Under the pieces are notes generated by a model. That model saw nothing but the letters and a program-made list of their open reading frames with translations. It did no database searches and was not told the DNA's origin. Made by a program: the position numbers and the translations under genes. Below, piece after piece: positions 1 through 22,400 of a DNA stretch of 32,000 nucleotides; within the stretch, counting starts at the first letter, position 1; the number at the start of each line of letters is the position of its first letter. Origin of the DNA: Dickeya solani IPO 2222 (GTDB lineage Bacteria > Pseudomonadota > Gammaproteobacteria > Enterobacterales > Enterobacteriaceae); assembly GCF_001644705.1 (NCBI RefSeq), contig NZ_CP015137.1:1530001-1562000 (forward strand). The letters run 5' to 3'.

Positions 1-507
1 GATGTCCATCGCCGTATAGGCGCGATAACATGCCGAGCTGTCCAGGCTTCTGGTGGTACACTGGGTCTGCAAAGCGCGGATATCGACCGGTAATGGTGTT
101 GCCGGAGTAGAAACTGACTCCCCGTCATCAGGCAACGCTGTTACTCGGGCCTGCCCCCGACAATGTGTGATTCTGCCGGCCCCTCCAACAGCAGAATCCT
201 CGCTGTAGATCTCAAAACTGATGTGGTCGTTATCTTCAGGACACAGATCGATAGACACGGTCAATCCCGCCGCCTGAACGCTCATCGGTCTCACCCAACT
301 GATATTTTTCAGCATTATCTGGCTGGCATGACCTGCAGCATCAGTGATTGCGGCTCTGGCTAATTCCAGATAGGCAACCCCCGGCAGAACGTTCTGTCCT
401 TTAACAACATGGTCAGCCAGAAAAAATTCGTGCCCGGTAAAAAAACTGCGGTAACGCTGGGTAGCGAAATCTGACGTGTTTTGCTGCACAAGCGGGTGTA
501 TTTCTCG
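1..507 (-). other. DH domain, N-terminal part (cut by window edge)
   Basis: HPLVQQNTS...FFLADHVVKGQNVLPGVAYLE matches the HxxxGxxxxP dehydratase motif; catalytic His codon at 411..409. Confidence 0.8.
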
Positions 508-2469
508 CAGCATCCGATCTCCACGAGAGTCCGGGGGCGATATCGCCGCGGTATCTGCCTTACTCCAGTAATGTTCAAGGTGGAAAGGATACCGAGGCAG
601 AGAGCGTTTACTAAAACCAGACGTACCGAAGATCTGGGTCAGTGGGAAATCAACGCCTCTGACCCAGAGTTCCATCAGAAAACCTTTGTCATTCTCCCAG
701 TCCAGCGTTTTCAGCAACTCAGACAGCCGGTTATGGCGGGTAAATATATCAAGCGCCTTATTTTCATCTTGCTGTCCGGTTTTCAGGTAGTAAGACTTCT
801 GCCCATTGGCAGCAATAAACTGGGTCAGCTTATCCTGTAAATTGTCGATGCTGGTGTAACGGAAGACCGCCCGCTGATCAAACTTGTTTCTTGCCGTCAG
901 ATAGAAATATTCCAATGCTCCGGGGTGAATGTCATGGGATTGCTGCAAAAAGGCCAGAATAGATTCAGCATAGTGAATCCACTGCCATTCATGCATCGTT
1001 GACAGCGCCAGAAAATACACATCACCCTGCGGCTCATCACCGACGGCTTTTCTATGCGCGTGGAGATCGGCGGAGCGGGGATATTCCTCCAGCAGCAAAT
1101 GGGCGTTAACACCGCCGGCGCCGAAGTTATTAATCGCGGCCCTGCGGGGAATTTCTTTGCCGTTATCATCCAGCAGAGGCGGCCACTCTTCTGTCATGTT
1201 ATCGATATAAAAGCGTGAGCCTTCCAGGCTGATTTTGTCGCTACAGGCTGAAAAATCTTTGATTCCTGGCTTTTTCCGCGTTTTAAATGCATGCAGTACG
1301 CGAACCAGCGAAACCATCCCGGAAGCCGAATTGGCGTGACCCATATTAGGTTTGAGCGTACTGACTTTACACGGGCTGCGCGTTGACGGTTCCACACTCG
1401 CGTTTAACTGAGCATCGGCACGCTTGAACCCTTTAATTTCTTCAGCATCGGCCAGAAGCGATGAGGCGCCGTGAGCTTCCACATAGGTAACGGTGTCCGT
1501 ATCAATACCGGCCTGACGGTATGCATTAACAATCACGCTCGCCTGTGATTCCGCCGACGGCATCGTCAGGCTGCCATAGCCTCCGGTATGGTTCACATCA
1601 GAGCCTAAAATCACCCCATGAATGTTGTCCCGATCGGCAATAGCCTGCGATAGGCGCTTGAGCAAAACCGTCGCCGTAGCCTCCGCAGGCAAGAAACCTT
1701 TAGCATCGGCCTGAAAAGGAGAACAGACTGTTGCTCCCCCGAGAATGCCTAAAGACTCCTGCCCCAAATACGATCCGGCCAGAGCATCGCCAAATAACAG
1801 ATTGGCGGCGCCAACCAGTGCATAATCGGCTTCCCCGCGCAGTAACGCTTCTTTCGCCTGATGCAGAGCAACACTGGCACCGGAACAGGCGGTATCGATA
1901 TAGAAGCTTTTACCGTTGAAACGAAAAGCATGGGAGAGGTAATTCGGCAGAGACCAGGACATCATGCCCAATATGGAATAACTCGTAAGCTCAGCTTTGG
2001 CGAGAAAAGGCGTATAAGCAGCACCTTCCGAGGCAATATAAACATCGACTTTCGCCTCTCGTAACTGTTGAGGCAGATAACAAGCATCCTCCAGCGTATG
2101 CCATGCGGACATCAAAAGCAGGCGGGTTCTGGGGTCCATATATTCGGCTTCCATCGGACCTATATTGAACAGGTCAGGATCGAATCCGGCGATATCATTC
2201 AGAAATGCCCCATACCTGTTTTGCATCTCTGGCCCCGGAAAATGATTCTCCGGCACGAGAGAAAACAGAGACTCCTGTTGATCAAGTTTATGGCAAAAAT
2301 CTTCGATAGAATCAGCACCTGGGAAAAAACCTCCCACGCCGATAATGGCAACGGCTTCTTTTTTATGCACCGAAAAAAGATCATCAGGCCAGGAAAGGTT
2401 GCTACCTGCATCGCTCTGTATATCCGTTAATACCGTGGCATCTTTACTGTCGTTATTCTGCTTCGTCAC
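1..2469 (-). CDS. trans-AT polyketide synthase, N-terminal part (KS - flanking linker - DH...); 3' end runs off the window
   Basis: Absent from the ORF track (no stop in window). Hand translation of the minus strand from GTG 2469..2467 to position 1 gives 823 codons without a stop. GGAGG lies 7 nt upstream, and an in-frame TAA at 2535..2533 limits the N-terminus. Motifs: AVAIIGVGG, IDTACSGAS, YVEAHGASS, LKPNMGHANSASG, FGAGGVNAHLLLEEY, LPRYPFHLEHYW, then HPLVQQN...FFLADHVVKGQNVLPG. Confidence 0.9.
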   Translation of the reverse strand, partial: MTKQNNDSKDATVLTDIQSDAGSNLSWPDDLFSVHKKEAVAIIGVGGFFPGADSIEDFCHKLDQQESLFSLVPENHFPGPEMQNRYGAFLNDIAGFDPDLFNIGPMEAEYMDPRTRLLLMSAWHTLEDACYLPQQLREAKVDVYIASEGAAYTPFLAKAELTSYSILGMMSWSLPNYLSHAFRFNGKSFYIDTACSGASVALHQAKEALLRGEADYALVGAANLLFGDALAGSYLGQESLGILGGATVCSPFQADAKGFLPAEATATVLLKRLSQAIADRDNIHGVILGSDVNHTGGYGSLTMPSAESQASVIVNAYRQAGIDTDTVTYVEAHGASSLLADAEEIKGFKRADAQLNASVEPSTRSPCKVSTLKPNMGHANSASGMVSLVRVLHAFKTRKKPGIKDFSACSDKISLEGSRFYIDNMTEEWPPLLDDNGKEIPRRAAINNFGAGGVNAHLLLEEYPRSADLHAHRKAVGDEPQGDVYFLALSTMHEWQWIHYAESILAFLQQSHDIHPGALEYFYLTARNKFDQRAVFRYTSIDNLQDKLTQFIAANGQKSYYLKTGQQDENKALDIFTRHNRLSELLKTLDWENDKGFLMELWVRGVDFPLTQIFGTSGFSKRSLPRYPFHLEHYWSKADTAAISPPDSRGDRMLREIHPLVQQNTSDFATQRYRSFFTGHEFFLADHVVKGQNVLPGVAYLELARAAITDAAGHASQIMLKNISWVRPMSVQAAGLTVSIDLCPEDNDHISFEIYSEDSAVGGAGRITHCRGQARVTALPDDGESVSTPATPLPVDIRALQTQCTTRSLDSSACYRAYTAMDI
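1084..2361 (-). other. KS domain (Cys/His/His present; HGTGT motif reads HGASS)
   Basis: Cys codon 1887..1885 in DTACSGAS. EAHGASS replaces EAHGTGT. NMGH is present, and the domain ends FGAGGVNAHLLLEEY. Confidence 0.9.
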
Positions 2470-2476
2470 GTTAAAG

Positions 2477-2481
2477 CCTCC
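2477..2481 (-). promoter_or_regulatory. Shine-Dalgarno (GGAGG) for the PKS starting at 2469
   Basis: The minus strand reads AATTGGAGGCTTTAACGTG, with 7-nt spacing to the GTG. Confidence 0.6.
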
Positions 2482-2508
2482 AATTGCCTTACCTGCCACC
2501 GTTCCCCG

Positions 2509-2545
2509 GTCGCCGCACGCCCACTTTTGCGTTTAGTGCGGCGAC
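2509..2545. repeat. GC-rich inverted repeat (10-bp stem, 17-nt loop) in the 128-nt intergenic gap
   Basis: gtcgccgcac (2509-2518) is the exact reverse complement of gtgcggcgac (2536-2545). No U/T tract follows on either strand. Confidence 0.6.
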
Positions 2546-2597
2546 GGGAAATCAAAAGAGGGCGGTGCATTCCTTTTTTCTTCAGACGAACTGCTTA

Positions 2598-2960
2598 CTA
2601 ACTCGCTGACAGTTGTAACTTGTCCCGCTTAAATACCTTGACGGTACCGGTCTGGGAATCCCTGACCGCCACCAGACTGCCGAAGTTAAACTTCTTCAAT
2701 ACAAAATGATCGATCAGTTCCGCTTCAGAAAGCTCTTCTCCCAGGCGGTATTCTTTTTTATCGAAATCCTGCCATGATTCATCGGCCCGATACCGAAACC
2801 AAAGAGGCTTGAGCCGGTTATATTGCACGTTACCGCCCGCCAGAAATTCCTGGAGCGTATCTGCCGATGCCTGATCATCATTCAGAATGTAGTACGCTTT
2901 GTCCGTCGGACAAATAATCATATTGAACAGGCCGGAATTTATCAGATATTCCTTCATCAT
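2598..2960 (-). CDS. 120-aa protein of unknown family; candidate accessory subunit of the adjacent cupin enzyme (OocQ-like by position)
   Basis: ORF-track ORF. ATG 2960..2958 overlaps the upstream TGA 2959..2957 (ATGA); a second ATG follows directly. AAGGGAG lies just upstream. I can recognise no catalytic motif in MMKEYLINSGLFNMIICPTDKAYYILNDD... Confidence 0.7.
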   Translation of the reverse strand: MMKEYLINSGLFNMIICPTDKAYYILNDDQASADTLQEFLAGGNVQYNRLKPLWFRYRADESWQDFDKKEYRLGEELSEAELIDHFVLKKFNFGSLVAVRDSQTGTVKVFKRDKLQLSAS

Positions 2961-4123
2961 TTATCTCCCTTACTCAGGACGTCACTGGTGGTGGTGTAGG
3001 CAGAAAAATAATTCTCATCTCCGATAGTTTTGGATTTTTTACCTAAACTGTTGAAAATATCGAATTTGAATTTGATAAAAGACGGATCTGAATTCAGGAT
3101 ATTGTCATATACCGGCATAAGTGTTGGAACATCTTTTCCTTTCGTCATCGTATCCAGATTCACTTCCGTCATCCGCATATTAGCCATGATCTGCAATGGC
3201 GTAGTATTGATAACAGCGTGAGGCCAGTATTTCGTGAAAAAGAGGACATCGCCCGGTTCCAGATCGACATAGAATTTCGGCGCATAGGCATAAAGCGGGT
3301 TATGAATTTTATGGAAGTTAATATCGAGGCGAGCATCCATCTTGGCTGACATACCGTTTGCACCATCAAGAAACGGGCGCAAAATATATCCCAAACGGGG
3401 ATCGACAAAGTACCAGCGTTTTACTCCGCTGATCATCAGCGCGCAGGAAATATCATTACCCTGATGCCAGTTAGTTCCCCAGGTGCGAAGATTACCGACA
3501 AATAGCTGGCTGAAACTATTCGCTGAGTGGCCATGAAAAAGATCGAGAATTTTTCCGGCGCCGACTTCATCGATCAAATCAGGATAGTCATTAAAAATTT
3601 CCGCAGAGTTATTAATGTAGTAACTCACCTTGGAATCTTTATCCAATTGAGAACGGAGTATTTTTTCCAGCTTGAGTTTTTTCAAACTGTTTCCCTTCTC
3701 ATCATAGCCGACCGCAATAATCTCCGTATCTTTATAGTGCTCAATTAGATAATCATGGGTCCATTCCTGAACGGCCTTCGTGTCATTAAGAAAACCTTTG
3801 GCAATGATCGGCGGGTTGCTGGCGTCATTGATCATCTTCTGAAAAGTCGTCCGATCCATATCTGAAAAATCGTAGGATTTCATTTTGATGAAAGTGTCGG
3901 CACAGTCCGTCGCGGCTAAATCAGGATACGCCGCTTGCAGATCCGCTAATTTTTTCTCAAATAAATCACGTTCGAAACTCTCCATGAAATCGGGAGATTT
4001 CAACACCAGTCGCATATGCATCATAAAGTGGAAATTTGCCTGTTCTTCCTGATCCAGAAAGAAAGAGGGCATCATTTCAAACACTTTCCGCTGTGTTTCG
4101 CTTTGAATATCATATTTTTCCAT
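2957..4123 (-). CDS. JmjC/cupin-fold Fe(II)/2-oxoglutarate-dependent enzyme with H-x-G...H metal site (predicted halogenase; OocP-like by context)
   Basis: The longest ORF starts at TTG 4168 (403 codons, overlaps the ACP gene by 20 nt, no SD). The first ATG is 4123..4121 (Met16 of the track protein), preceded by AAGGGA about 8 nt upstream, so I prefer the 388-aa model. Core: GTNWHQGND (His235 codon 3466..3464, Gly237 3460..3458), ISGVKRWYFVDP, GDVLFFTKYWPHAVINT (His317 3220..3218). Residues are numbered on the 403-aa track ORF. Confidence 0.85.
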   Translation of the reverse strand: MEKYDIQSETQRKVFEMMPSFFLDQEEQANFHFMMHMRLVLKSPDFMESFERDLFEKKLADLQAAYPDLAATDCADTFIKMKSYDFSDMDRTTFQKMINDASNPPIIAKGFLNDTKAVQEWTHDYLIEHYKDTEIIAVGYDEKGNSLKKLKLEKILRSQLDKDSKVSYYINNSAEIFNDYPDLIDEVGAGKILDLFHGHSANSFSQLFVGNLRTWGTNWHQGNDISCALMISGVKRWYFVDPRLGYILRPFLDGANGMSAKMDARLDINFHKIHNPLYAYAPKFYVDLEPGDVLFFTKYWPHAVINTTPLQIMANMRMTEVNLDTMTKGKDVPTLMPVYDNILNSDPSFIKFKFDIFNSLGKKSKTIGDENYFSAYTTTSDVLSKGDK

Positions 4124-4148
4124 AAATATATTCCCTTGGGGTTCAGGC

Positions 4149-4418
4149 TCAGAGAAGAACCATTTCAAGGCGATTGAAATGATGTTTTTTCAAATATTCA
4201 CTCAATCCCTGAAGCGAATTGACTTCCAGAAACACAACTGGAGTCAGCTTGATAGAGAAAAACTTGTTCAGATCCGCGCAATATTGATTAACCTCCATCG
4301 ACTCAAATCCATATTCATCAATGTCGCTTTCCCACTCTATATCCGCTGGTTCACATTTCAGTATTTTTGCTGCTAGCGCAACAAGATAACCTGACAAAGC
4401 TTCGTCTAACTCACCCAT
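4149..4418 (-). CDS. free-standing acyl carrier protein (PKS-type, 89 aa)
   Basis: ATG 4418..4416 is preceded by GAGGTG (4428..4423). The sequence IDEYGFESMEVNQYCADLNKFF...LTPVVFLEVNSLQGLSEYL has the PP-binding helix II pattern, with Ser40 (codon 4301..4299) in GFES instead of G(F/L)DS. Confidence 0.85.
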   Translation of the reverse strand: MGELDEALSGYLVALAAKILKCEPADIEWESDIDEYGFESMEVNQYCADLNKFFSIKLTPVVFLEVNSLQGLSEYLKKHHFNRLEMVLL

Positions 4419-4422
4419 TATT

Positions 4423-4428
4423 CACCTC
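4423..4428 (-). promoter_or_regulatory. Shine-Dalgarno (GAGGTG) for the free-standing ACP
   Basis: The minus strand reads AATAGAGGTGAATAATG. Confidence 0.55.
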
Positions 4429-4481
4429 TATTTCATCCAGAAATCACAACACTAACTCCGTGTTTACTCCACGACAGAGCG

Positions 4482-7400
4482 CTATTCCGCTCCTGTCAAT
4501 ACCGAACTATTTTCATCAGCTGCCTTGATATCGTCGAAACCTTCGTGCCAGCAAAAGACCTTCTGCAATGGATTGACCGGTAGATGGAGTTTTTGTATCA
4601 ATTCACCCCGTCCTTCAGCCAGGCGCAACGGCGTCCAATCCACAGCATGACCCGCCAGCCAATCCATCACAGCGTGCCGAATGTCATCACTGAAATGGGA
4701 CAGCCCCCCCGCGATACCCGGCGACACGTGACGGCTGTCATAAATGTCAGTTTGATTACCCGCACGGGATCGCCAGCGCTGCAAACACTCCTGCAACTGC
4801 GCAATACTTGCCGCGCTGACAGCCAACCGTACGGTCCGATGTTCCCTGCCCTGTTGCAGGGTATATTCGAGTTGCTCCAGATAGACCGATTCAGTCGTAG
4901 GTTGCTTTTCTGCCGCCGGCGCCCCCGTAATAAACTTGCCCGCGGCAATATCTGCCTGAACGCGCGGCAAAAAATCCAGGTAATCACTCACCAGCATGGT
5001 TAATCTGGCTTCATCCGCTTCAGAAAACAGGAAAATAAAAGACCGGTTTGTCTGCCTGGCGGAAGACTTGAATAACTCGGCTCGTCGATCAGCGTCATAT
5101 TCCTCAAGCAGCAGGTGTGCATTCACTCCCCCAATACTCATGGAGTGGATAGCGCCTCGCCGGGGTACATGGCCATGCTTCTCCCAGGCCCGATCTTCTC
5201 TGAGTAGCTCAAAGCCATCGGTCAGGGTGATCCCTTCGTTCAGTTCTCCCAGCCCCTCGATTTTTGCCAGACGACGGTGGTACATCGACAACACCATTTT
5301 CACCAATACCGGAAAAGTCGATGCCGTTTCGGCATGACCGGCCAGCGGCTTGAGAGAACCAATGGCAATCGAAGACGCGCGACTTTCTGCTGAGGTATTG
5401 TTCACCCGGTCAGGGCTCTCCTGTTCTTTGCTCTCCTGTTCTTTGCTCCCCTGTTCTTTGCTCTCCTGCAGATAGGGGCCATATACCGCCTGAATAGCAA
5501 CCAATTCAGAAGCATCCCCCAACTGGGAACCGTTGGCTTCCGGTTCGATATACGAGATGGTCGCTGGGTCAATGCCAGCCTCGGTGAAAGCGGCTACGAT
5601 GGCCGACTTCTGCCCTTCAATATTCGGGCTATACCACTTCAGAGGGGCTTTACCGCCATGACTGATGCCGACTCCTTTTACATTGGCATAGATGGCATCC
5701 CCTTGCGCCAACGCCTCCGCCTCTGCTTTCAGAATAATGGCTCCGACGACTTCACTTTTCACATAGCCATCAGAGTCATGGGCAAAGCTTTTCGTCACTG
5801 GATGAGAGCTATACAGGGCTTGATCATCCGTGCGGTTCTGCATGAAGGGAGAAAGCCCCAGTTCCACCGTGGCAACAATAGCCTGCTGGCAACGCCCTTC
5901 ATTAATGGCGCTCATGGCATGCCTAATCGCCACCAGAAAGCTGGCACATCCGGTTTCAACAATTTCACTCAGCCCGGATAGGTTCAGAATATTTGAGATG
6001 CGATTGGCATAAGCTGATATTTGTTCCGCCTGAAAACGCCACTGTGCCGCCTGTGCCGGATCCATCCTGGCAGGAATATCCTGATAGCCTGAATGACCAC
6101 GCGTCGCCACAAAGAGTCCGGTTCGTTTTTCACGGAACTGACTCAGGGTATATCCGGCATCCGTCACGGATTGCCAGATGACTTCGAGTAACTTTCGTAT
6201 CTGGGGATCCAGCTTTTGAGCTTCCTTGTGGGGGACTTTGAACAGCTTGTGATCGAAATACTCGACCCCGTCGAGATAACCGCCGATTCTACTGCTACCA
6301 CTATCTCGCTCATCCAGAGCCATCAGGTATCTGCGCTTGTCGCTTAAGGCAGAAAGCGTCGTGCGGCCCGCACTCAGGTTTTCCCAGAATCTGGAGATAT
6401 GCTCCGCCTGAGGGAAAATGCCTGCCATACCGATAATACTGACATTCTGCTTCTGCCCTTTTCCGGTTACCGCTATCTTCTCATCCGCCTGCTGCTTCTC
6501 ATCCACCCGCTTTTGGGTATCCGCTTGCTTTTTGGGATCCCATTGTTCTTCGGGCAAGGTTTGGCTGCCAAGCTTTGCCAACTGCTCGCCAAAATGACTG
6601 CGCAGGTATTGCTGAATTTCCCCTATGGTGCGGTATTCCATAAACAGCGAGCGAGACACATCCGGGAATTTTCCCCGGATTTTGTTTAACAGGTCGACGG
6701 ACACCACCGAATCCATCCCCAGCTCTTCCAGAGCACGATCCGGGCTAATGATCTCTTCGGATACTTTGAGTTGCCGGCTGATCAGCCGTATCAGATAAGT
6801 CTCCAGATTAAAGTGTGAGTTGACCCCCTCTGGTGCGATGTCTTCCGATAACGGCGAAGGTACATCAGCTGATTTTTCCGGCACCGGGTGAACGCCATTT
6901 TCATCGGATAAGCGTTCAGCGACACGGCTTTCCCCCTGACCTTCTGGAAGCCAGAACCGCTGACGCTCGAATGGATAGGTCGGCAAGCTGAGACGACGTG
7001 GGCGTTGCCCCCGGTACAGACCAGACCAGTCAAACGCCAGTCCCTGACACCACAGGTTCAGCAACCTGGCGTATTTCCCACGCTCAGCCCATTTTGCAAT
7101 GGCTTCACTCAACTCTTCATCCGCAGAAAACTGAGCCAGCAGGGCTTTATTACTGCCGCGTTGACCCCGGTATGTGTCATCGGGGTTCCCGGCGTCATGC
7201 AGAAAACCGTCAATCTTCGCTATCAGCTCATCGAATGACTTCACGATCCATCCCAGCCGCGCATCCATCGCATCACGCCCGACTTGCAGCGTATAGGCCA
7301 GATTAGTCAACGTCAGAGAAGCGTCTTGACGATGCTGTTCCAGATAGTGCCTGAGATTCTGGGCGACCTGCCGTAAACGCACATCGTCTTTGGCCGACAG

Positions 7401-10400
7401 CAAAATCACATAACGATCCTGCACTGCCTGTAAGGCCGGGCGGGTATCCCGATATTCCTCTATCACCACATGCGCATTGGCCCCACCAAAACCAAAAGAA
7501 CTGACACCGGCCCGCCGCGGCAATGCTTCTCCACGAGCGTTTTTCAACGCATGCCAGGGACGATTCTCACCAACGATATAAAAAGGCGTCCCCGTGAAAT
7601 CGATGTAGGGATTCGGTTCTTCACAATGCAGGCTCTTCACCAAGGTTTGATGCTTCATTTGCAGCAGAACTTTAATGACGCCAGCAATCCCTGCCGCCAT
7701 CTCCAGATGCCCGATATTGGTTTTCACCGATCCGATGCCGCACTCTGTGTTGGTATATTCCTCACCAGAATAATCGGCTTTCATGGTGTTAAATGCTGCT
7801 TTCAGGCTATTGATTTCAATCGGATCGCCGAGTTTCGTACCCGTACCGTGAGCCTCGATGTAACTGATACTCCTGGGATCAATGCCGGCATTCCGGTAAG
7901 CACTTTCCAGCAATGCAACCTGAGCCTTGGGATTCGGCGCCGTCAGAGAGCTGGCCCGACCGCCGTGATTCTGCGCACTGCCGCGGATCACTCCATAAAT
8001 GTGATCACCGTCAGCTTCTGCCGCCTGTAAGCGTTTCAGCAGCAACATCCCAACGCCTTCTCCCCGAACATAACCGTCAGCCTGGTTGGAGAAGGTTTTG
8101 CAACGACCGTCGGAGGCAAGCATGCCAGCTTTGCAGAAGCTGACAAACGTATCCGGCGTAACAAGCGTATTGATCCCACCGACAATCACCATATCGCAGC
8201 CTTCATGGCGCAAGGCCGATACCCCACGATGGATAGCAATCAAAGAGGATGAACACGCCGTTTCAATCGGCTCGCTCGGACCGTGGACATTGAGAAAATA
8301 ACTCATCCGGTTCGGCCCGACTGAAGGAACAATTCCCGTTGCGGTGAAGCCTTCTGCCGGCAGCTTCGCATCAACAATCAGGCCGGAATAACCGGTGTTC
8401 CCCGTTCCGATATAGATGCCCAGAGCGCTGCCGGACAGAGAACTGGCCGAATAACCCGCATCTTCAATGACTTTCCAGGCATGGGTCATCAACAAACGTT
8501 GTTGCGGATCCATTAATTCAGCTTCACGGGGGGATATGCCGAAAAACAGCGGATCGAACTCCGCCATATCCTGGATAAACCCTCCCCAGCGAATGCTGTC
8601 CTTGTTTTCAGCGCCATGCACATCTTGCAGGTAATCCCGCCAATTCCAGCGGATTGGCGGAACTTCACTGATACAGTCTTTCCCCTGAAGCAGATTTTCC
8701 CAGTAGGTCTCCAGATCCGGAGCCATCGGGAAGCTACCGCTCATTCCCACAATCGCAATCGCTTCCTGTTCATCACGCTTGCTGCCTGACGCTTGCGATG
8801 ATTGCCGCCCTGCCAGGTGTGAGTTATCCGCCGAATTCGCCGCCGGCACGCTGTTGCGCTCATTTCCCTTCACAGCCAGGACGTCATTCGCCGGTGATAT
8901 TTCATCTGTCGGTTTACAACCGCGCGTTGGCGATGGCGCCATCACTTTTTCTGCAAAGAGATGACTGAAGCGATCCTGATAGTTATCGGCCAGATAGTTG
9001 GTCAACCCGGCGACGGTCGGATATTCAAAAAACACGGTCGGGAGCAGATCCAACGTATATTGCCGGTTCAGCTTATTAGAAAAACCGGTCGTCAGAATTG
9101 AGTCAAAACCCAGCTCATTCAGCTCAATATCGATATCGATGTCTGCAACGTTCACTTGTAACAGCGTCGAGACTTCCTGCAACAGAAGCGACTGAATCGC
9201 CTCATGCAACGCCTGAATATCCAGTTCGGTATGACGGGCTCCGGTCTGTTCCTCGGCTGGCACAGGTTGCCAGAAGTCAGCCGCAGCCTGATCTGAATGC
9301 TCCGCCAGAGACGGATTGGCTGTCTCATGATGGGCGGACGTTTCATAGACGTCCTCTTTATGCGAAAAATCCGTAAATTTTGCAGCAAATACCGTCTGAT
9401 AGGTTTCCGTCAGATAGCGGCTTAATGCCGAAATGGTCGGATACTCAAAAAAGACGGTCGGCAACAGGTCAAGCTCGTACTGGCGATTCAACTTGTTGGC
9501 AAACCCAGTGGTCAGAATTGAGTCAAAGCCCAGCTCGGTCAATTCAAGCTCCAAATCGATCTCAGCCCTGTCCACATCAAGTAACGCGGATACATCACGG
9601 ATCAAAAGTTGCTGAACCGCGCCTTCCAGACCCTGTAAATCAATCCGTGTTGTTGACATATGACCAGCCCCTGGTGCCTGACCTGCCAATACCGGATCTT
9701 CGCTGCGCTTTTCATCTACTTTTACTGGCTGAAATGCCGTTATTGATGGACGTGTCGTTATTGATGGAATCGCCGTTATTGATGGAAGCGCGCTGAGCGT
9801 CTGGCGCAATTTTTCAAGGTCGCCGGCAATCACCAGCACTTGGTTTTCTTCCCGCGCAATCGCCCGATAGAAAGCCTGAAGACCGGCATCCGTCGGCATC
9901 GCTATCATGCCGGTGCTTTGGTACATCATGGTCTCGAATGCGTCATCCACTTTCATCCCGCCCTCTTTCCAGAGCGGCCAATTGATCGCAAGGGTTCTTC
10001 CCATTCGCGACTGAGCAACCACCCGTTGCTGACGATAGTGAGCATAGGCATCCATGAAACTATTAGCGGTAACATAATCAGCCTGTCCCGGATTACCTAA
10101 GCCAGCCGCCGTTGAAGAAAACAGAATAAAGAAATCCAGCGGATGCTGTGCTAAAGCCAGATCCAGATTCACTACCCCCTGAACTTTGGGGGCCAGCACC
10201 GCCTGAAAGTCCGCTGCAGACTTTTTCAGAATGTAGCTGTCACGCAGTACGCCGGCACAATGCAGAACACCGTTGATCGTTCCGTACTGAGCGGTCACGG
10301 TAGCGATCAGCGCCTCAACACCCGGCCGATCACAAACATCAAGCATTCGGTAATCGACCTGTGCTCCCAGCGCCTCCAACTGGCTGATCGACGTCTGAAT

Positions 10401-13400
10401 TCGGGGGGTCATAGCGGAGCGCCCGGTTAAAATCAACCTTGTATTTCGGGTCTGACGGGCGATTTCCGTGGCGAAAATAAGCCCCAGCCCACCGGCTCCG
10501 CCAGTAATGAGATAAACGCCCTGCTCCTTCCACGGCATGCGAGTGAGCCCGGACAGCGCTGATCCGTTGGGAACAGCCGCCCCGCCATTCATAGCGCACA
10601 CTTCCTGCCAGGACAGAACCTGACGCCCTTCCCGGTCATAGCGAATGTGAATATCTTCCGGCATCAGGCTACTTTCCCGCAGCTTCTCACCCACATCATC
10701 GGCACTGACCGCCACATCCAGCTCAATCAGTTGACCGATAAAGTTGGGGTTCTCTAAACGTGCGGTTTTTAACAATCCATTGAGAGCGGTTGATAGCCGG
10801 GTCGGGAAATCTCCGGCAACCACCAGTTGCAGTAACATCGCCTGTTTGGGCTTTCTGGCTAAAATCGTTTGCACCTGTGCAAACAGTGCCAACGCACTCT
10901 GATGAAAGTTCAGCGCGATATCGTCCGTGTCCTGCACCGGCAAAACGACGTCATCCGTCAGGCCAATATCTTTTGCGACAGAACGATCTCCGCAAAATAA
11001 GATTTGGCGACTCGCGTATGCATGCGGAACAGCGGTATTGACCCGCGCATTTTTGCGCAGCCACTGCGGCACAAGCAGTAAAGTACCGTTTCTCTGAGTC
11101 GTGACCTGCTCGGGCGTGCGGGCGCTAAAGCCATGCAGAGCAACGCAAAGCTGCCCCGCGTCGTCATATAACTTGACGGTAAGTTTCTGTACCTTTGCCT
11201 GAGGATTGGGCTCGGTTCCGTGGTCATAGGTCACACAAGCCCACATCGTAGAAGTGCATCGATGAAGAATATCCATCGACTCCATATCAAAAGGTAAACC
11301 CAGCCGATGCTCTCGGGACAACCCCAGCGTCGCCTGCAATGCCGAATCCATCATGCTGGGATGTAATACATAATCACCGAGCGTTTCACTGAGTGTTTCA
11401 GGCAAAGTTAACCGCGCCAGAACACGCCCCTTCGCCAGATACAGATTCTCAACGCCCTGATGCCCAGGGCCGTAGACGATCCCAAGCTTACGAAAAGCCT
11501 GGTAACACTCAGGCTTCTCAATGGTTCCTTCCTGATGTTCAGCCAGAGCAACAGACAGATCGAGTCTTTCCCTGTCATCTGGATGCCGGTCGATGACGAG
11601 CACTTTACCCTGACAATGAGTCTGCGTTTGACCATCCGGCATCAGAGAACAGATTTCAAACCGAATCACCTTAGCCGACTGCGGCAACAGTTTCACGGTT
11701 AGCGGGTAGGTTCCGGCTGCGGTTGCAGAGGCGTCCCGGTGTTCGGCAATGAATGGGCGAACCCACACAATCTGCGTCAATTGCAAATGAAATCCAGCGC
11801 CAACAACCTGCTCAACCGCGGCCCGAGCCATTTCCAGATAGGCCACGCCAGGTAACAGTTTTTGTCCCATCACCAGATGGTCAGCCAGGAAAAATTCGCG
11901 ACCATCAAACCAGGAGGTAAAACAGAGCGCGGTAATATCAGAAGTATTGCGATGCACCAGAGGATGCAAACGATATGGACTTATTTTTACAGGGGATTCC
12001 GTCTTTCCTTGTCCATCGCTCCCACTTTCTGACGTCTTCACCTTCAGCCAGAAACGATCCCGTGCAAACGGATAGGTCGGCAAACCGATTCGGCGGGGCT
12101 TTACTGCCGTCGGGTACAGTGGCTTCCAGTCAACCTGACCGCCCTTCACCCAAACATCGAGCAGTTTGTTGTAGTTGCCTGTTTGCAGCCATGTTCCGAC
12201 CATCGTTTGCCACGTATCTTCATCCGCCAGCATCGACAGCGATTCTTTACCGGCTTTAACATTCCCGCGATAAACCCCTTCTGGTATTTCTGCATCAGAG
12301 AGATAAGCGGCCAATGTTTGTTTCAATGTCTGCACGGAACGGGTTACAAAGGCCAGACGTTCATCCATCGCTTCACGCCCCACTTGCAGGGTATAGGCGA
12401 TTTCAGTCAGGCTGGGCTGCTGGGCAGCACACTCGGCAGAATCCAGAAAGGCCGCCAGGCCTTGCACCACCGCGTCTAAACGCCCGGTCTTTTTGGCCGA
12501 CAACACAATTGCCACCGGCACGGCAGAAGAAGACGAAGCCTCCACGACTTCGGCTGTCGGCGCATACTCCTCAAGAACAATATGCGCATTAGCCCCACCG
12601 ATACCGAAGCTACTGACACCGGCCCTTCTCGGCATTGGCTGACCGGCAGCATCTTCTATTGCAGGCCACGCTTGTGTCTCCTGGACCAGATAGAACGGGC
12701 TATCGGCTAAATCCAGATAAGGGTTTGCCGTCTTAAGATGCACATTGCCCGGAATTTTCCGGTGGCGGAACATCAGCAAAATTTTCAGGACACCGGAAAT
12801 GCCGGCGGCCGCTTCCAGATGCCCGATATTAGTTTTCACCGACCCTAATCCACAATACGCCTTTCGGGTCATCGCTTTATTCTGTTCCCGGTACAGGGTT
12901 TCAAACGCCTTCTTCAACCCATTGATTTCAATCGGGTCTCCCAGTTTAGTTCCCGTACCGTGGGTTTCGATATAGCCCACCATCTCTGGATCAATGCCGC
13001 TACGGCGATAGGCCTGAACCAGCAGTTCTTGCTGCGCAACCGGATTCGGCGCCGTCGGAGAGGTGGCTTTGCCGCCATGATTCTCGGCACTACCACGGAT
13101 CAGACCGTGAATGCGATCGCCATCGGCTTTCGCCTGAGTGAGGGGTTTGAGCATAATGACGCCGACACCTTCACCACGACCATAGCCATCGGCACTGATA
13201 TCAAACGTTTTACAACGACCGTCTTCACTAAGAATACCGGCCTCCCCGGCGGTAATGGTGATCCCCGGATTGACGATAACGTTGACACCACCGACAATCG
13301 CCACGTCACAACTACCGGAGCGAATCGCCTCTATCGCCCGGTGGATGGCGACCAGTGAACTGGAGCATGCGGTATCGATAGGCTCGCTGGGGCCGTGCAG

Positions 13401-16400
13401 ATTCAATATATAAGAAACACGGTTTGCCAGCGCAAAATGAGAAAGCCAGGGTGGATCGCCGATACCGAATTTATCGTGGGAATACTTCAGCCAGGCGTCT
13501 TTATACTCAGAGGTTGACACCCCGACAAAAACCCCGGTATTGCTGCCCGATAAATCACTGGCGCAATAGCCGGCATCCTCAATCGTGGCCCAGACAGTTT
13601 CCAGAAAAACCCTGAATTGCGGATCCAGCGATTGGGCTTCACGGGGAGAGATCCCGAAAAACAGCGGGTCGAAACAGTCGACATCCTGCATGAATCCCCC
13701 ATAATTCACTTTGGTTTTTCCGGGGGTTTCATGTGGATCGCCATAATATTCCTGCCAGTTCCAGCGATCTGCCGGAACCTGGCCGATCAAATCAGAATTC
13801 GCTTCCAGCTGTTGCCAGAACTCATCCAGATTGCGGGACTGAGGAAATCGGCCACTCATACCGATAATCGCTATCGCTTCTGGTGCTTGTGATATTTTTG
13901 GTGTTAATGGCGTGCCCACCTCCGGCGCAGTCGCTTTTGAAATGCCTGAAGCGGCCACGTCAGCAACGGCGGCTTCTGATGGCGTAACCTCTGGTGTTGG
14001 CTGTGACTGGATTTGCGGTGCAGCCCGCCAGGCAAATGCTTTTCTTCCTTCCTCAGTATTCGCGGTTCTGGTGACCATAATCTGAGGTTGCCCGCTAGCC
14101 GCTCCCTTTGCTGAGATAGCCCCAGCGCTGACAGATGTCGCAGCAGCGTTATCAGCAAAAGCCTCGGGGTAAGTGTTAGCCAGATAGTTCCCCATCGCCC
14201 TCAGGGTCGAATGCTCAAAGAAAACCGTCGGCATCAGTGCTAATCCATAGGTTTTATTGAGACGACTGGCGAACTCGGTGAAATCGATAGAATTGAAGCC
14301 ATATTTAGACAGCTCCATATCCAGCTCTATCTTTTTTTCATCAAGCTTTTGCAGTTGCGCGACCATACTGACAAGCAATGCACAAACCTGCCCGACCCGA
14401 ACCGTGCCGTTGACCTCTGTTGTCAAACCTGCCGCATCTTTTATATCCGATTGATGCACGGGCGCCGGATGGGTGGACGTTGGCCCCTCAGAGAGTCTGG
14501 CCTGAATTTTTTCTGCCTCACCATAGATGACGGCAAGCTGAGATTCCTGACTTTGCAGCCCCAGAATCAATGCCCGAATTCCCGCATCAGTGGGCATCGG
14601 AATCAAACCGGTCTGCTGTCTGAGCAGTTCAGCATCGGGTGCGGAAATACCCATACCGCCATCACGCCATAGCGGCCAGTTTAACGCCAGGGTTTTTCCC
14701 CGGCGCAGACCATTGGCGACCTGCTGGTTACGCCAGAGGGCAAATCCATCCATAAATCCATTGGCGCAGGCATAATCGGCCTGGCCGGCATTACCAAACG
14801 CACTGCTCAATGAAGAAAACAACACCATAAAATCCAGGTTGCAATCCTGGGTCGCGTTGTCCAGAGCCAAGGTTCCTGCCACTTTCGGCGCCAGAACGTC
14901 GAGCAGTTCCGCTTCAGTTTTATTGGCAATGAAAGCATCACGGATGACGCCTGCACTATGGATGATGCCATTCAGTTGACCTTCATCTTGCAGAATCTGC
15001 TGTACCAGATTGCGGGTTTGCGCCGGATCGGCCACATCCCCCTGCAGGTAAGTCACCTGAATCCCCTGATGCCGCAAATCCAAAAGGCGTTGCTCACTGC
15101 GTTCATTCAGGGCAGAGCGACCGCTGAGTACCAACCGAGCCTGATATTGAGTCCCCAGTTCACGGGCAATCTGATAACCAATCCCCCCCAAACCGCCGGT
15201 TATCCAGATGACACTGCCAGAAGAAACCGGCAGTTCATCAGTCATGTCTGCCAGAGTGCTCCGGCGCCACGCCTTCACCCTCCGGTTTCCGGTTTCATCG
15301 TAACGAATCTCTGTGGCGTCATTTGCGCCATGCATTTCAGACTGTAACTGTGTTAGCAGCGGTGGGATGGCTTCCGGTGAAGCGTGGTATCGGATCACTT
15401 TGCCATTGAAGCCGGATTGTTCTTGCCGGGCTGTTTTGAACAGTCCCGAACTGGCTGATAACCACGATTCATTAACCGGTTCTGATGCCAGTATAAATAC
15501 GGCTTGCCGCTGAGATTGCTCCCGGCAAGCAAGCGTCCTTTCTTTTATTTGGGCAAATAACTGTTGCAGGCAATACGTAAATTGTTGCGGTTCGTGGTCG
15601 TGACCCACAGGCAGGTTCACCACCTGGCAATCGGGCCAGCTATTTTGCAACGCGGTTTGCAGCGCCGCGTTCTCATCGGCCAGAATAAAACAAGGCGGCA
15701 GTGCATCGGGATCACCGTCATGCACCTGAGCAGACCCACTATGCTGGATGACCCACTGAGGCCGGGCAAAAACCAGCGACTCGGCTTGCGAAACCTGAGC
15801 ACTTATCATGCTCAGTCCTTTTATCTCAACCAAAATATGCCCGTGATGATCGGTAAACCAGATATCACAACGCACGACCCGATGTTCTGAACCCGCATCA
15901 GACTGCGTTTGGCGAATATAAGCCAAGACGCTTGCTGGTAACGGCTGGTAGATCCTCAGCGTATCCATGCTAAACGGCATCAGCGGATGAGTACCTTGCC
16001 GCTCACCGCCGACGGCCAGCATAATGCCGGCCAAAACGGCCCCATTCATCAGTGCCGGATGCAACACCGGCTCCTCACCCACACCGACAATATCCTGGTG
16101 AACTTCCAGCGTCACCAGCGCTTCATTATTCCCCTGCTGATACCGGGTAATCCCAAGCAATCTGGGCCCGATGGCGGTGCCGAAAAATTCAGCACAGGCA
16201 TGATGGGAGCGACGCTGCCGGCAGCGATGCTCGATTTCTGTAAGCGGCAAAGGCTGACGTTCTGTTCCACCGACAAGCCCAGTCATCACGCGCCCCTGCG
16301 CATGAACCTGTCCCTGTCTACTGATAACACAGTGATAGCCTTGTGCGTCTCGATTCAGGGCCAGATCGATATCCGTACCCTGTTCTCCCACCATCACGGG

Positions 16401-19400
16401 CTGGTGCCAGATAACCTCCTTGAGACCCACGACGACTTCGGAATCCCCTGTTGAAACGTGTGATACAGCCAGTTCTCTCATCCATTCCAGAGACAGCATT
16501 CCGGGAAGCAACCCACCGTGATCCTGCAAAAAATACTCTGTGCCGCTTAACGCTTTGCCCTTTATGCTAACGGTCATCTCTGCGCTGACCGTCGTATCTA
16601 CAGACGTCACCGTTCCCGGGGAAACAGATTGCTCAGAGGTGTGAGATACCGGCAAAACCCGCGTCGAGAAGCCACGCATACTCACACAGATACGACCATG
16701 ATCATCGCAGAGGTCGATATCCATTTTCCGTACTTGCTCGTTTGCCGAGTTTTCTGTTGATACCAGCCGTAGCCAGACCCAAAGACGAGCATCAACCTCT
16801 GCGAATACATCCAATTGCTCCAGAGCAAAAGGAACATAGGCGGCGCCAGACGGTAGGTCTGAGTGATTCAGCCCCAGACTGGTTTGCAAGGCCGCATCCA
16901 TCAGGCTCGGATGCAGGCCGAACGCGGAGGATGTCACCGTATCCGGCACAGCAATCCGAGCCAGTACCTGACGCTCTCCGGTCAGTAGCTGTTCAATGCC
17001 CTGAAATGTCTCGCCATAACTCAGCCCCATATCGCGAAACTTCTGATAACAGTGCGCCGCCTCATATTCAGGGCCAGTCATCTGTTTCTTCAGTTGGTGC
17101 AGATCCAGCGTGTTCCTTTCTAAGGCGTTATTTCCCGTGATGGCGTCATTCGGACGGGGATCAATGATTCCCTGACCATGAATCGTGCGCTGCTGAATGT
17201 CGCTTTCCGAATAAATCTGGTAGTCAATGAGACCGCTTTCCTGTTCGTAGAGACCCAGATAGATTGTGGTTGTCTGTTGCGTTGCGATCACCGGCTGAAG
17301 CCAGAGTACCTGCTTCAAACTGAAATGCAGCAGTTGCGATTTGGAAAAGAGGGGAGAGGCAGCATAGGTATAAGCCGCCCGAGCCATTTCCAGATAGCTG
17401 ACGCCCGGCAGCACCTTCTGACCATGAATCTGGTGATCCGCGAGGAAAAACTCCTCGCCGCTGAACTCAGAGCGAAAGCGAAGTTCAGCCAGCGTTGAAG
17501 CATTTTCCTTCAACAGCGGATGTAATAGCCCCGGTCTGGCCGCGACAATAGGGCCTGGCGATGAAGATAACGCGCGGGTCTCTAGCCAGTGATGCTCTCT
17601 GGCAAAGGGGTAAGTCGGTAAGACGACACATCTGGATACGTCCGGAAACAGCGCCGCGCCGTCCAGTTCGTATCCTTGACAATAATAGTCTGCCAGTGCG
17701 GACAGGATTTCCTGATATTCCTGCCCCTCACTATGTTGTGGCTGGCGTAATAGTTGTGGCTGGCCTGATAAAACGTCGACCTGCTGGCGAATGATCTTTT
17801 GTCCGGCGAAGCCCAACGGTACTTTACCGCGAAACAGATTGGGACGTTGCGCATGCTCTGCCTGCTGCAAACTGATGATGACGCTTTCCCGATCTTCAAC
17901 CACCACGGCCAGACGGTATTGAAAATGACTCCGCCCCCGCAGCAATGTATAACCGATCGCTGCCAGTCCCTGACCGCTGGTTTGCGGTTTTTGCAAATGC
18001 AAAATCAGATCGTCGACCTTACGGTATAACGCCTCCTCGGTCTTGGCCGACAAACAGAGAAGATAATGGCTGCGCTTTGGCTCTGGGGACGAAACCGGCT
18101 GAGGGTATTCCTGCATGATAAGATGAGCGTTGGTTCCGCTCATGCCGAAAGCACTCACGGCCCCCATTCTCTGCTTACCCTGCTGTACCGGCCAGGCCCT
18201 GGCCGTTTTATTCACATAAAAAGGACTCTCTGCCCAGGTAATGTAGTCATTTTCCTGCTGACAGTGCAGACTTGCGGGAATGACTTGCTGATTCATCGAC
18301 TGAAGCAGACTCACGGCGCTAAGGAGCCCCGAAGCGGCAAACGTATGGCCGAAATTCGTTTTTGTCGACGTCAGGGCGCAAAAAGCCTGTTTATCGGTGT
18401 ACGCTTTAAACGCATCATTCAACGCATTAATCTCGACCGGGTCGCCAAGCCGGGTACCCGTTCCGTGCGTCACGATATAGTCAATCTGCGCAGGATCGAT
18501 GTGAGCGCGTTTATACACGGTTTTGAGCAAGTCGGTCTGCGCCACACCGTTCGGCGCAGTGATCCCGTTAGTTTTGCCGTCATAATTGATACCGCTGGCC
18601 CGAATCAAACCGTGGATCGGATCACCATCGGCTTCGGCCTGCGACAAGCGTTTTAGCACCAGCACCACCACCGCTTCGCCAGGCACCATGCCGTTAGCAC
18701 GCCGATCAAAGGTGTAGCAGATCCCATCCTCAGAAGTCATGCCTGAACGCTTCATGATATCGAAGCCTTCCGTCGAGAGTTGCAAACTCACGCCGGCTGC
18801 CAGCGCGGTGTCGCATTCTCGGTTACGCAGACTGGCGCATGCCAGATGCGCAGCGACTAAACCGGATGAGCAGGCCGTATTGATCGCCAGCACCGGTCCG
18901 TGCAGATCGAGAAAATAGGCCAGCCGTGAAGCCAGAATGCCATTGTGATTGGCAGTAATTTCAACGTGTTCAGCACCAGAGAAACGTCCGTATGTTCCCT
19001 CTTCCACACCGACAAAAGTGCCGATGTTATGCTGCCGCAACTGTTGCGCGCCGTAACCGGCATGTTCCAGCGCTTTCCATGCTTCCTGTAAGAGCTGGCG
19101 CTGGCCGGGATCCATGTTTTGAGCTTCTCGGGGCGAGATTTCAAAAAACAGCGGGTCAAATTCAGCCGCACCGGGTATGACACCACACCACAAGCCCTGT
19201 TCTGCCGAAGAACCACGATCATCTAACGTAGCACTACCATCACGGTAAGACTCGTCCCGACTACGCAGGTATTCTGCACTCACGCGGCTTACAGACGATT
19301 TTCCCTCTGCCAGATACTGCCACATTTCATCAACATCACGGGCATCGGGAAAACGGCCGCTCATACCGATAATCGCGATCGGCTCTTCTGCTTCGAAAGG

Positions 19401-22400
19401 AGAGTTCTTAGCATCGTGGAGGCCGTCTTCCCCGATAGTCGGCCTATTCACAGGCCGGATGTCAGGGTGGGCGTTTGAATGTACCGATTCGACACGGTGA
19501 CCAGACGCCTCGCTATCCCCGGCCGATCCGCCGTAATACATCTGCATCAACGCGCCGTGTGTCAGCATAAAGTACTGACAGAGTTGCGAAAGGGTTGCAT
19601 TGCCGAAAAACAGGGCTGGTGAAACCGCAACGTTCCAGTTCCGGCTGAGGCAGGAGGCAAACTCAGCAAGGCTTATCGAGTCAAAACCGAAATCGGCCAG
19701 ATTTACGTCATGATGCAAACGGTGCCGTTCAATACTTAAAATATCGCTTATCGCCTGCTGCAATTCCCACAGTACACACTGCTCAACCGTCAGCCCCTTC
19801 ATTTCCGGGCGACGGGCAGTGGTCGTCGCCGGCTGGCGTTGCGGCCGCTCCTGACGGTTGCCGGATTCATTCTGTAACCCATTCCCCAACAAGCGTTGAA
19901 TCTTATCGGGCTGTCCGACCATCACCAGCGACGAGCCGGCTTCACCGGCCAGCAACTGTTCGAACACCCTCAATCCTTCTTCACTTCGCAATGCACGTTG
20001 TCCGCTGGTTTTCAAATAAAGGGACGTTGCCTGCACTCGCTCAGCCGAGCTTTGCGTCATTCCCCCGTCCTGCCAGACAGGCCAACTGATTGCGATAGTC
20101 TTTCCTATCAGAGATTGAGTCTTTCCTTCGGGAGATTCCTGTCTATTGCGGTTGTTGGCATAGGCCATTTGAAAACGATTCGCCACGGCATAATCGCCGG
20201 CGCCGAAATCACCCAAAACCGCGGCACTGGAAGAGAAATAAACGATAAAGTCTAACGCTTCTTCAGCACCGAATACGGTTTGCCAGGCCTTATCAAGAAC
20301 CAGAGTCCCCTGAATTTTCGGCGCCAGTACCTGACGAACGCCGGTAAGATCTTTTTCTGCCAGTATCTGTGTCGTTTGAACGCCAGCGGTATGTAATATG
20401 CCGTTGATCTTAATCCCCTGACGCTGACAATCAGCGAACAGGGATTGCATCTGAGACAATTCACTCACATCCGCCTGCAGATAAGTAACCTGACCGCCGC
20501 GCTGTTCAATTGCCCGTAAATTCGCCTGTTTTTCCAGATCAAGGGGAGAGCGGCCAACCAGAAGAACTTTCGCCATAAAGTTCTCACACAGATAGCGTGC
20601 AAATACCGTCCCTAATCCCCCGAGCCCTCCGGTAATCAGATAACATCCGCCAATTTTTAAATAACTATCGGTTTTTAAAACATCATCGGGTTTTAAACCA
20701 TCACCAGTTTTTAAACCATCATCAGTTTTTAAACCGCTATTACCGTTTTCCATCCGGGTCGGTTCGAGGGTCAACACATGACGCTTGCCCTGGATATACA
20801 GCACGCTTTGAGCAAGTTCGGTCTGCAATTCAGCCCAGATTTCGGAAATATATCCGGCGATCGACAGCCATTGATCAGTATCGGTAGCTTCTGTAATGTC
20901 AAACCCGGCAAACGTGACTCGTGTTTCCGGTAGAACAAAACGTAAGGATGCGCCGAAAGCCACCAACGCATCGGCATAACAACGCTCCAGACTGCTGGTA
21001 AACGCACTTACTACCAAAATACGGCCAACATCCAGTCCGCTGGACAACAGCCCCTGAAACAGGGGAACCAATTGATTCATCCCCGATTCAGGTTCAACAA
21101 AACACAGTAAAGCCTCTACCGTTCCCTGCCCGTTCTCCTTTTGAGAGACCGTCTTCAACTGAGAAAAATAGCGGTGATAGGTACTTGCCTCTGCTACCGA
21201 CAGATCGTCAGGCGCGAAAAATTCAGTCGATACATTCGCGGCCATTTGATTCATACCGAGACGCATCGTGGTTTGACCTGCAGCCGGGATGACGCAAAGC
21301 AAGCGCTGTATCCGGCGCTCAGCGCAACTCAGCACGTCAGGCAGCGATTGCTCTTGCCACCGCTCACGATAGACCAGAACAGCATCATCCTGCTCTGACG
21401 TCATTGCTTCATCAGGTTCAATCAGAACGTCCGATTCAATCAAAACATCCGATTCAATCAAAACATTAAGTAAGTCGGGCTCAGCCTTCTGGCTCTGCGG
21501 AGTCGGTGCGGATAGCGTTGCAACAGAGCTGGTCGTTGCGGGGCTGTTCGTTACAGGGCTATCCACCGTAGCAATCCAATAGCTTTCCTGTTCAAACGGA
21601 TAAGTCGGCAGGTGCATCCTGCGCGGTGTCGGTCCTTGATACAAAACACCCCAATCTGCCGGTTCGCCCCGCAGCCAAGATGCCAACTGTCTGGAAACAA
21701 GAGGAGAGATTCCGTCATGCCGGGCGTCGGGTACAGAATGTGATATTCCATCACCGGAAAGTAACGCTTCGGCGGCACGGGAACGGGCAGTTCCCGACAC
21801 ATCGGCATAATACAGACTGAGACCTGATCTCGCCCCTTCTTCAGCAGCAAGATACCGGCCCACTTTCTCCTGCAAGGTATGCCAGCCATCGGCAATCAAC
21901 GCCAGACGGTGAGGCATCGCCGTTCGTCCGAATTGTAGGGTATAAGCAAGATCCCGCATGCTTTGCGGCTCATTACCGGCGATCAGGTTTGCGGCTATCT
22001 GCTTTAACTGCGGTTCACTTTTTGCAGATAACACTATCAGGTACGAATCATCCTCACCTGGCGCCCCTGGGCATCGCTCTTCAGCCCCCGCGTTCTGTAA
22101 CACCAGATGAGCATTGGTTCCCGAATGTCCGAAAGAGCTGACTGCCGCAAAACGCTGCTCCTGCTCCCAGTTTTTGAGCGCGGTATTCACATAAAAAGGG
22201 CTATCGGCAAAATTAATATCTTCATTTGGCTGGACATAATTGAGCGACGGCGGGATTTCTCGATTTTTCAGCGCCAGCGCCGCCGTAATTAAATTCACAA
22301 TGCCGGAGGCGGCTTGAGTATGGCCAATATTGGTCTTCGGCGAGGTCAAGGCACAGTACTGCTTTTTATCTGCACCCGTGCTATGAAACGCATCAATTAA

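Follow-up and report, generated by a model that had tools for sequence, protein, structure and literature searches.

The window, the whole stretch of 32,000 nucleotides of Dickeya solani IPO 2222 analysed here, raises the question of what a 120-aa protein with no recognisable motif does when its gene starts inside the end of a cupin gene within a PKS cluster. The original prediction held that the protein is a dedicated partner of a cupin halogenase, a kind of pairing described for OocP/OocQ, and that it would found a new accessory family if it were no OocQ homologue. Such a partner, it suggested, would either stand in for a homodimer interface or act as an adaptor to the KS0/ACP pair. It also described an ATGA overlap between the two genes and a 128-nt gap behind the smaller one. 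Both are read in the sequence: the gap spans 2470..2597, and the GTG at 2469 with which the next gene, oocR, begins is conserved in relatives, where it is followed by the same N-terminus (VTKQNND, in Dickeya oryzae and Serratia). The gene proves to be oocQ, and its product is very probably the non-catalytic heterodimer partner of OocP in the D. solani ooc halogenation module, a stabiliser made by coupled translation.

The window holds oocL(?)-M-N-O-P-Q-R of the D. solani trans-AT PKS cluster for the antibiotic oocydin, on the minus strand; the cluster is that of PMC4552970, and the region is colinear with the ooc loci of Serratia and Dickeya. Its genes are as follows:

26298..31952, minus strand: PKS gene
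25168..26301, minus strand: oocM, luciferase-like monooxygenase
4482..25208, minus strand: oocN, giant trans-AT PKS of 6908 aa in the ORF list
4149..4418, minus strand: oocO, free-standing ACP of the halogenation module, 89 aa (PP-binding, 5e-13; PMC4552970)
2957..4123, minus strand: oocP, Cupin_8/JmjC-type Fe(II)/2-oxoglutarate halogenase, 388 aa (match to 8A82_A, Pfam Cupin_8 at 3e-15, motif positions)
2598..2960, minus strand: oocQ, auxiliary subunit of the OocPQ halogenase (ORF list, match to 8A82_B, AF2 model, exact match to Dickeya solani AUC42341.1)
1..2469, minus strand: 5' part of oocR, a PKS that begins KS-DH and runs off the window (Pfam ketoacyl-synt, Ketoacyl-synt_C, PKS_DH_N)

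The C-terminal KS encoded by oocN keeps its Cys and lacks the first catalytic His (EPEANGSQLGD vs EAHGTGTxLGD). To judge from these residues it is the non-elongating KS0 that precedes OocO, which agrees with the published account of the last OocN KS as a domain without catalytic triad (PMC4552970).

The identity of the small protein is given by both alignment and structure comparison. Searched against PDB sequences with phmmer, it matches chain B of 8A82 ('OocQ') with an E-value of 2.9e-63, residues 2-118 falling onto 1-117 at ~82-83% identity, and this is its sole significant match there; weak matches to complement C3 (E 1.6) were set aside as chance. The entry, released on 2023-03-08 according to the Foldseek listing, is entitled 'Fe(II)/aKG-dependent halogenase OocPQ'. 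An AF2 model built with 26 homologues (pLDDT 84.3) superposes on the same chain with TM 0.80/0.83 (Foldseek E 2e-16), and a Foldseek search of the model against the PDB returned no other fold relative, the next hit having an E-value of 0.9. By alignment and by model, then, the 120-aa protein is an OocQ orthologue and the feature is already known: it shares with OocQ the full-length homology, the fold, the place beside a Cupin_8 gene with an H-x-G...H site, and the position within a KS0-ACP-OocP-OocQ-PKS module. The proposal of a dedicated partner thus holds, its cupin being OocP (E 1e-247), and the conditional suggestion of a new accessory family falls away. That no motif could be assigned is borne out by Pfam and NCBIfam scans, in which no model matched. 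Since 8A82_B is the only PDB relative, the fold itself does not reveal a function.

The residue pattern is what would be expected of a structural or interface protein and not of an enzyme. The family has 25 invariant columns among 26 aligned sequences, mostly aromatic or hydrophobic (F12, Y23, F39, W54, F55, Y57, W63, F93, F110), together with the polar residues N8, N13, E61, E79, R100 and K111. OocQ therefore reads as a structural subunit, given its hydrophobic invariant residues and the lack of any other family or fold match in these searches.

The apparent orphan status of the gene results from a gap in annotation, the protein being labelled 'hypothetical' and having no Pfam or NCBIfam model. 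The exact OocQ and OocP sequences occur in Dickeya solani genomes as 'hypothetical protein' and 'cupin-like domain-containing protein', respectively. Every Dickeya and Serratia record seen still names OocQ 'hypothetical protein', despite a crystal structure since 2023, and some D. solani records of OocP carry the name 'Phospholipase'.

The length of the reading frame alone is no proof that oocQ is a gene, because a chance ORF of the same 120 aa lies antisense to oocR at 2068..2430. A chance origin for oocQ itself is excluded by its homology to a crystallised protein (E 2.9e-63) and by the breadth of its family, for which 5.8 billion proteins yielded 32 homologue clusters when grouped at 90% identity, and 1.84 billion yielded 19 representatives at 50% identity. 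With the ATG at 2960-2958 as its start and the TAG at 2600-2598 as its stop, the listed frame gives a protein of 120 aa with the N-terminus MMKEYLINSGLFNMIICPTDKAYYILNDDQASADTLQEF. At the junction, the minus strand reads ...GGA GAT AAA TGA, with the oocP TGA at 2959-2957 and the ATGA common to both genes. Two further features bear on where translation begins:

2955..2957, minus strand: second in-frame ATG, the probable true oocQ start (alignment of homologues, 119-aa annotation)
2965..2968, minus strand: GGAG Shine-Dalgarno core within the 3' end of oocP (read from the sequence; context AAGGGAGA, 2971-2964)

The ATG at 2957-2955 is the aligned start position of all non-Dickeya homologues (M[KSNT]EYL), and at the Serratia junction (caaTGAgcg) the ATG lies at the site equivalent to 2957. 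The GGAG core is 7 nt from this codon and 4 nt from the ATG at 2960, and GGAG- or GGGA-like motifs are present at the junctions of loci L001 and L003-L007. Because the non-Dickeya homologues start there, the GGAG stands 7 nt away and a 119-aa version has been annotated in D. solani IPO 2222, the true product is probably a protein of 119 aa that begins at ATG 2957, with a 1-nt TGATG overlap. Either start overlaps the oocP stop.

On the other side of oocQ lies a non-coding interval:

2470..2597, minus strand: 128-nt spacer between oocQ and oocR, containing a GC-rich hairpin (arms GTCGCCGCAC at 2545-2536 and GTGCGGCGAC at 2518-2509)

The inverted repeat GTCGCCGCAC...GTGCGGCGAC is perfect over 10 bp and extends to ~16 pairs in the MFE fold. 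The stem is kept in the D. oryzae spacer, with one compensatory change from C-G to U-A and one G-U pair. The stability of the hairpin does not stand out significantly from that of shuffled sequences (z -1.8), the stem is not followed by a T-run, no terminator was called in the oocQ-oocR gap, and a promoter and terminator scan of 2300..4600 found sites no more numerous than in shuffled sequence. The hairpin may be an element of mRNA stability or processing, or one that controls translation of oocR. The gap was also considered as an operon boundary, a reading that was rejected because oocJ-W have been placed in a single transcription unit (PMC4552970).

The upstream gene encodes OocP. The protein matches chain A of 8A82 over residues 1-388 (E 1e-247; about 92-93% identity), and its start is the ATG at 4123, colinear with 8A82_A from residue 1, not the TTG at 4168 of the mechanical call. 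That TTG call would overlap the end of oocO (stop 4149-4151), and the ATG at 4123 lies 25 nt past the oocO stop. The iron site consists of H220-Q-G222 and H302, and HxD/E is absent from the whole protein; H220 and H302 are invariant among the OocP homologues, and G222 is kept in the PKS-embedded ones except in the branch formed by loci L012 and L022. By this motif the site is of the 2-His, carboxylate-free type of Fe(II)/2OG halogenases. OocP itself is taken to halogenate by analogy, on the strength of the title of 8A82 and of PMC11260071. An NCBIfam match to mannose-6-phosphate isomerase (E 0.06) is far below the cut-off and reflects only the generic cupin fold, and a PDB search at E <= 0.01 gave no sequence match of OocP to SyrB2, CytC3, CmaB, BarB1/B2 or CurA Hal.

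What the pair does is best known from Serratia. OocP and OocQ form a heterodimer in which OocQ is termed 'auxiliary', and chlorination, lost in a delta-oocQR strain, is regained when oocQ is supplied (PMC11260071, which cites Fraley et al., 2023 (Structure 31:565, doi 10.1016/j.str.2023.02.010) and Hemmerling et al., 2022). In-frame deletion of oocP leaves no bioactivity, and deletion of oocQ leaves very low bioactivity (PMC4552970). By analogy with these orthologues, OocP and OocQ of D. solani would likewise form a complex, and chlorination would require OocQ. OocP may keep some residual function without its partner, since the bioactivity of the Serratia delta-oocQ strain was 'very low' and not nil. 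Entry 8A82 is the crystal structure of the OocPQ heterocomplex of Fraley et al. in Structure, 2023.

These observations suggest the following course of events. The iron site of OocP, having no carboxylate ligand, would leave a coordination site for chloride, and OocPQ would act in trans on an intermediate held by the halogenation module, that is, by OocN's KS0 together with OocO, a free-standing ACP; the module would thereby install the oocydin chlorine during chain elongation. The most likely role of OocQ would be to stabilise OocP, sitting on the face through which related halogenases form homodimers. The 2023 work of Fraley and colleagues reportedly describes just such a heterodimer, which takes the place of the homodimer conserved among related halogenases and makes OocP stable. 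The ATGA or TGATG overlap and the Shine-Dalgarno sequence inside oocP would couple translation of the two genes in a manner suited to a 1:1 complex. We infer both the role of OocQ as stabiliser and dimer surrogate and the stoichiometric coupling, the former partly from the title of 8A82.

If OocQ is a dedicated partner, its relatives should be found beside such cupins, and homologues that occur independently of a cupin gene had been named in advance as an outcome that would speak against the partnership. The survey covered loci L001-L017, from Dickeya, Serratia, a Lysobacterales MAG, a Verrucomicrobia MAG and metagenome contigs, and L018-L023, which were fetched with the cupin profile. Co-occurrence is strict: a Cupin_8 gene lies immediately upstream of the OocQ relative in 22/22 loci. 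Approached from the cupin side, OocQ follows directly on a single cupin gene in four of the six loci retrieved with that profile, the others being L019 and L021. An ACP gene lies directly upstream of the cupin gene in L001-L012 (tblastn among the methods used), and every PKS-embedded single-cupin locus with enough upstream flank has the order ACP, cupin, OocQ and then a PKS that starts with a KS. Start and stop codons of cupin and OocQ genes overlap at 8 of the 12 tabulated junctions, and 4-nt overlaps are also seen in the gene calls of L014, L015 and L016 and, from the ORF list, between P1 and Q of L019. At the remaining tabulated junctions the genes are separated by 11 nt (L008), 18 nt (L011), 48 nt (L009) and 230 nt (L010), and the system can therefore do without coupling by overlap.

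The same cassette, an ACP, a cupin with HxG and OocQ between PKS genes, occurs far from the Enterobacterales, in a Lysobacterales MAG (L006, JBBQZR010000080.1), a Verrucomicrobia MAG (L007, JAJFLO010000188.1) and loci L001, L002 and L008-L011. Downstream, L002 differs from ooc in carrying FMO, ACP-hydrolase and carbamoyltransferase genes.

Two kinds of PKS-embedded locus depart from the common arrangement. On the metagenome contig Ga0208397_100036 (L019, 1011-4140) the order is KR...-P1(HAG)-OocQ-ACP-P2(HQG), then a non-coding gap of ~390 nt and a KS-DH PKS. Here one OocQ accompanies a pair of OocP-like cupins that share 49% identity, and a search for a decayed second OocQ copy in the 390-nt gap found none. 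A strict rule of one OocQ per cupin gene is therefore not absolute, and the locus raises the question of whether both cupins share its single OocQ or P2 functions alone. The L021 contig is truncated, and its partial cupin is identical to P2 of L019 over the part that aligns. The other departure is a low-GC (31-32%) branch (L012:6755-7984 and L022:2944-4179) in which the cupins are 37-39% identical to OocP, H-F-N or H-I-N replaces H-x-G and the OocQ-like gene is kept. With Asn in the ligand position, the chemistry could be a different one. Both loci also have, in the interval from the upstream PKS to the ACP, an additional ORF (442-463 aa) that no Pfam model matches.

More distant still is a rare branch of OocQ-like proteins made up of nine clusters, all metagenomic, of 103-128 aa, whose aligned members are 21-30% identical to the OocQ of the window. 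Among its members, P0043, P0044 and P0045 are the weakest matches to the OocQ profile (E 1e-5 to 2e-4, for the whole library). The genes of this remote branch lie directly 3' of Cupin_8 genes of ~370 aa in all four contexts available, three of them with a 4-nt overlap:

L014:1276-2735: remote pair, with an MFS transporter gene upstream
L015:5356-6812: remote pair, with a MurB-like gene upstream and unrelated genes downstream
L016:633-2050: remote pair, with a GTP cyclohydrolase I gene upstream
L017:8871-10387: remote pair, with an AmiA-like gene downstream

An alignment that took in three of the four cupins, L014 and L015 among them, shows H-C-A in each of the three. Those of L014 and L015 are 28-30% identical to OocP, keep both His and have no carboxylate ligand. 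No PKS or ACP gene was found in the available flanks of L014-L017 (roughly 5-10 kb for L015 and L017), and for this reason the pairing of OocP and OocQ seems older or more general than docking to a PKS. The four pairs are candidate stand-alone two-subunit halogenases. A tentative extension, which we put forward as possible but doubtful, is that the cupin and OocQ form an autonomous two-subunit 2-His oxygenase unit of halogenase type that is independent of PKSs and was later recruited into the halogenation modules of trans-AT PKSs.

The same survey bears on whether OocQ might mainly be a docking adaptor, one that recruits OocP to the KS0 and the OocO ACP, or that forms part of the surface on which substrate or carrier protein binds, and so gives the enzyme its specificity for the module. 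A trans-acting enzyme faced with the many ACPs of a megasynthase needs some determinant of specificity, and the position and order of the cassette are constant in every single-cupin PKS-embedded locus (ACP, cupin, OocQ, KS-first PKS). The remote pairs of L015 and L017, however, have no ACP or PKS in their available flanks, the invariant residues of OocQ are largely aromatics of the kind that is buried, and the PDB sequence search returned only 8A82, with no structure of a complex that contains an ACP. On balance we regard docking as the main role of OocQ as unlikely, and prefer that of a stabilising subunit.

A stabilising role could also be a passing one, OocQ acting as a folding chaperone for OocP and being absent from the working enzyme. 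Auxiliary proteins that aid expression do occur in biosynthetic clusters, TlxI having been discussed as one (PMC13311259), and the very low residual activity of the delta-oocQ strain (PMC4552970) would fit such a helper. A transient association is nevertheless hard to square with a heterocomplex stable enough to be crystallised (8A82) and described as a heterodimer (PMC11260071), and coupled, roughly equimolar translation suits a stoichiometric subunit better than a chaperone that acts catalytically; we consider this reading very unlikely. We give scarcely any credence to the idea that OocQ is an enzyme or regulator in its own right, for instance one that helps to turn a chlorinated intermediate into the vinyl chloride. 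The few invariant polar residues could be seen in that light, as could a fold that has no PDB relative besides 8A82_B and so does not disclose its function, but no enzyme-annotated relative appeared in Pfam, NCBIfam or the PDB, proteins of the family have only ~115-125 aa and no cofactor motif, a DH domain is supplied by the downstream OocR (PKS_DH_N match), and the term used for OocQ in the literature is 'auxiliary' (PMC11260071). The reading of OocQ as non-catalytic heterodimer partner of OocP is thus the one we retain.

Compared with known systems, the D. solani pair is closest to that of Serratia plymuthica, whose ooc cluster has the same order oocN-O-P-Q-R. The Serratia OocQ (8A82_B) is an orthologue ~83% identical over its full length, with the same predicted fold and the same position after oocP with a start/stop overlap. 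The D. solani gene differs in one extra N-terminal Met codon, its overlap being ATGATG in place of ATGA, and OocP has 388 aa in D. solani and 389 aa in Serratia plymuthica, with no functional difference indicated.

The halogenases SyrB2, CytC3, CmaB, BarB1/B2 and CurA Hal resemble OocP in having a 2-His site without carboxylate (HxG/A...H) and a substrate tethered to a carrier protein, and several are homodimeric or occur as embedded domains. To our knowledge, all of them work without a dedicated small subunit. OocP, in contrast, is of the Cupin_8/JmjC type and, if it behaves as its Serratia orthologue does, requires OocQ. A nearer parallel to the partnership is offered by TlxI-TlxJ and KS-CLF, in which auxiliary or 'silent' partner subunits are encoded in biosynthetic clusters (PMC13311259). 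As in OocPQ, the non-catalytic partner is encoded beside the enzyme, forms a heterocomplex with it and is needed for expression or activity, but the partners in TlxI-TlxJ and KS-CLF are structural homologues of their enzymes, whereas the fold of OocQ is unrelated to the cupin.

As a gene, oocQ is already known, and it belongs to a known cluster of a well-sequenced plant pathogen. What is new here is the Cupin_8 gene upstream of OocQ in 22/22 loci, the remote branch with H-x-A cupins outside any PKS cluster seen, and the locus with two cupins and one OocQ (L019). The practical value lies in annotation, for a protein that goes under 'hypothetical' and is covered by neither Pfam nor NCBIfam will keep being flagged as an orphan in genome scans. 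The ACP-cupin-OocQ cassette can serve as a portable marker of backbone-chlorinating modules in uncharacterised trans-AT PKS clusters, and would be useful, for example, for those of the Lysobacterales and Verrucomicrobia MAGs. Should the tentative view of an autonomous two-subunit unit be right, OocQ would be a general obligate subunit of a distinct clade of Cupin_8 halogenases with a role that is not purely one of PKS docking, and the pairs outside PKS clusters would be candidates for the halogenation of as yet unknown non-PKS substrates. These cupin and OocQ-like pairs point to halogenases that may still be undiscovered.
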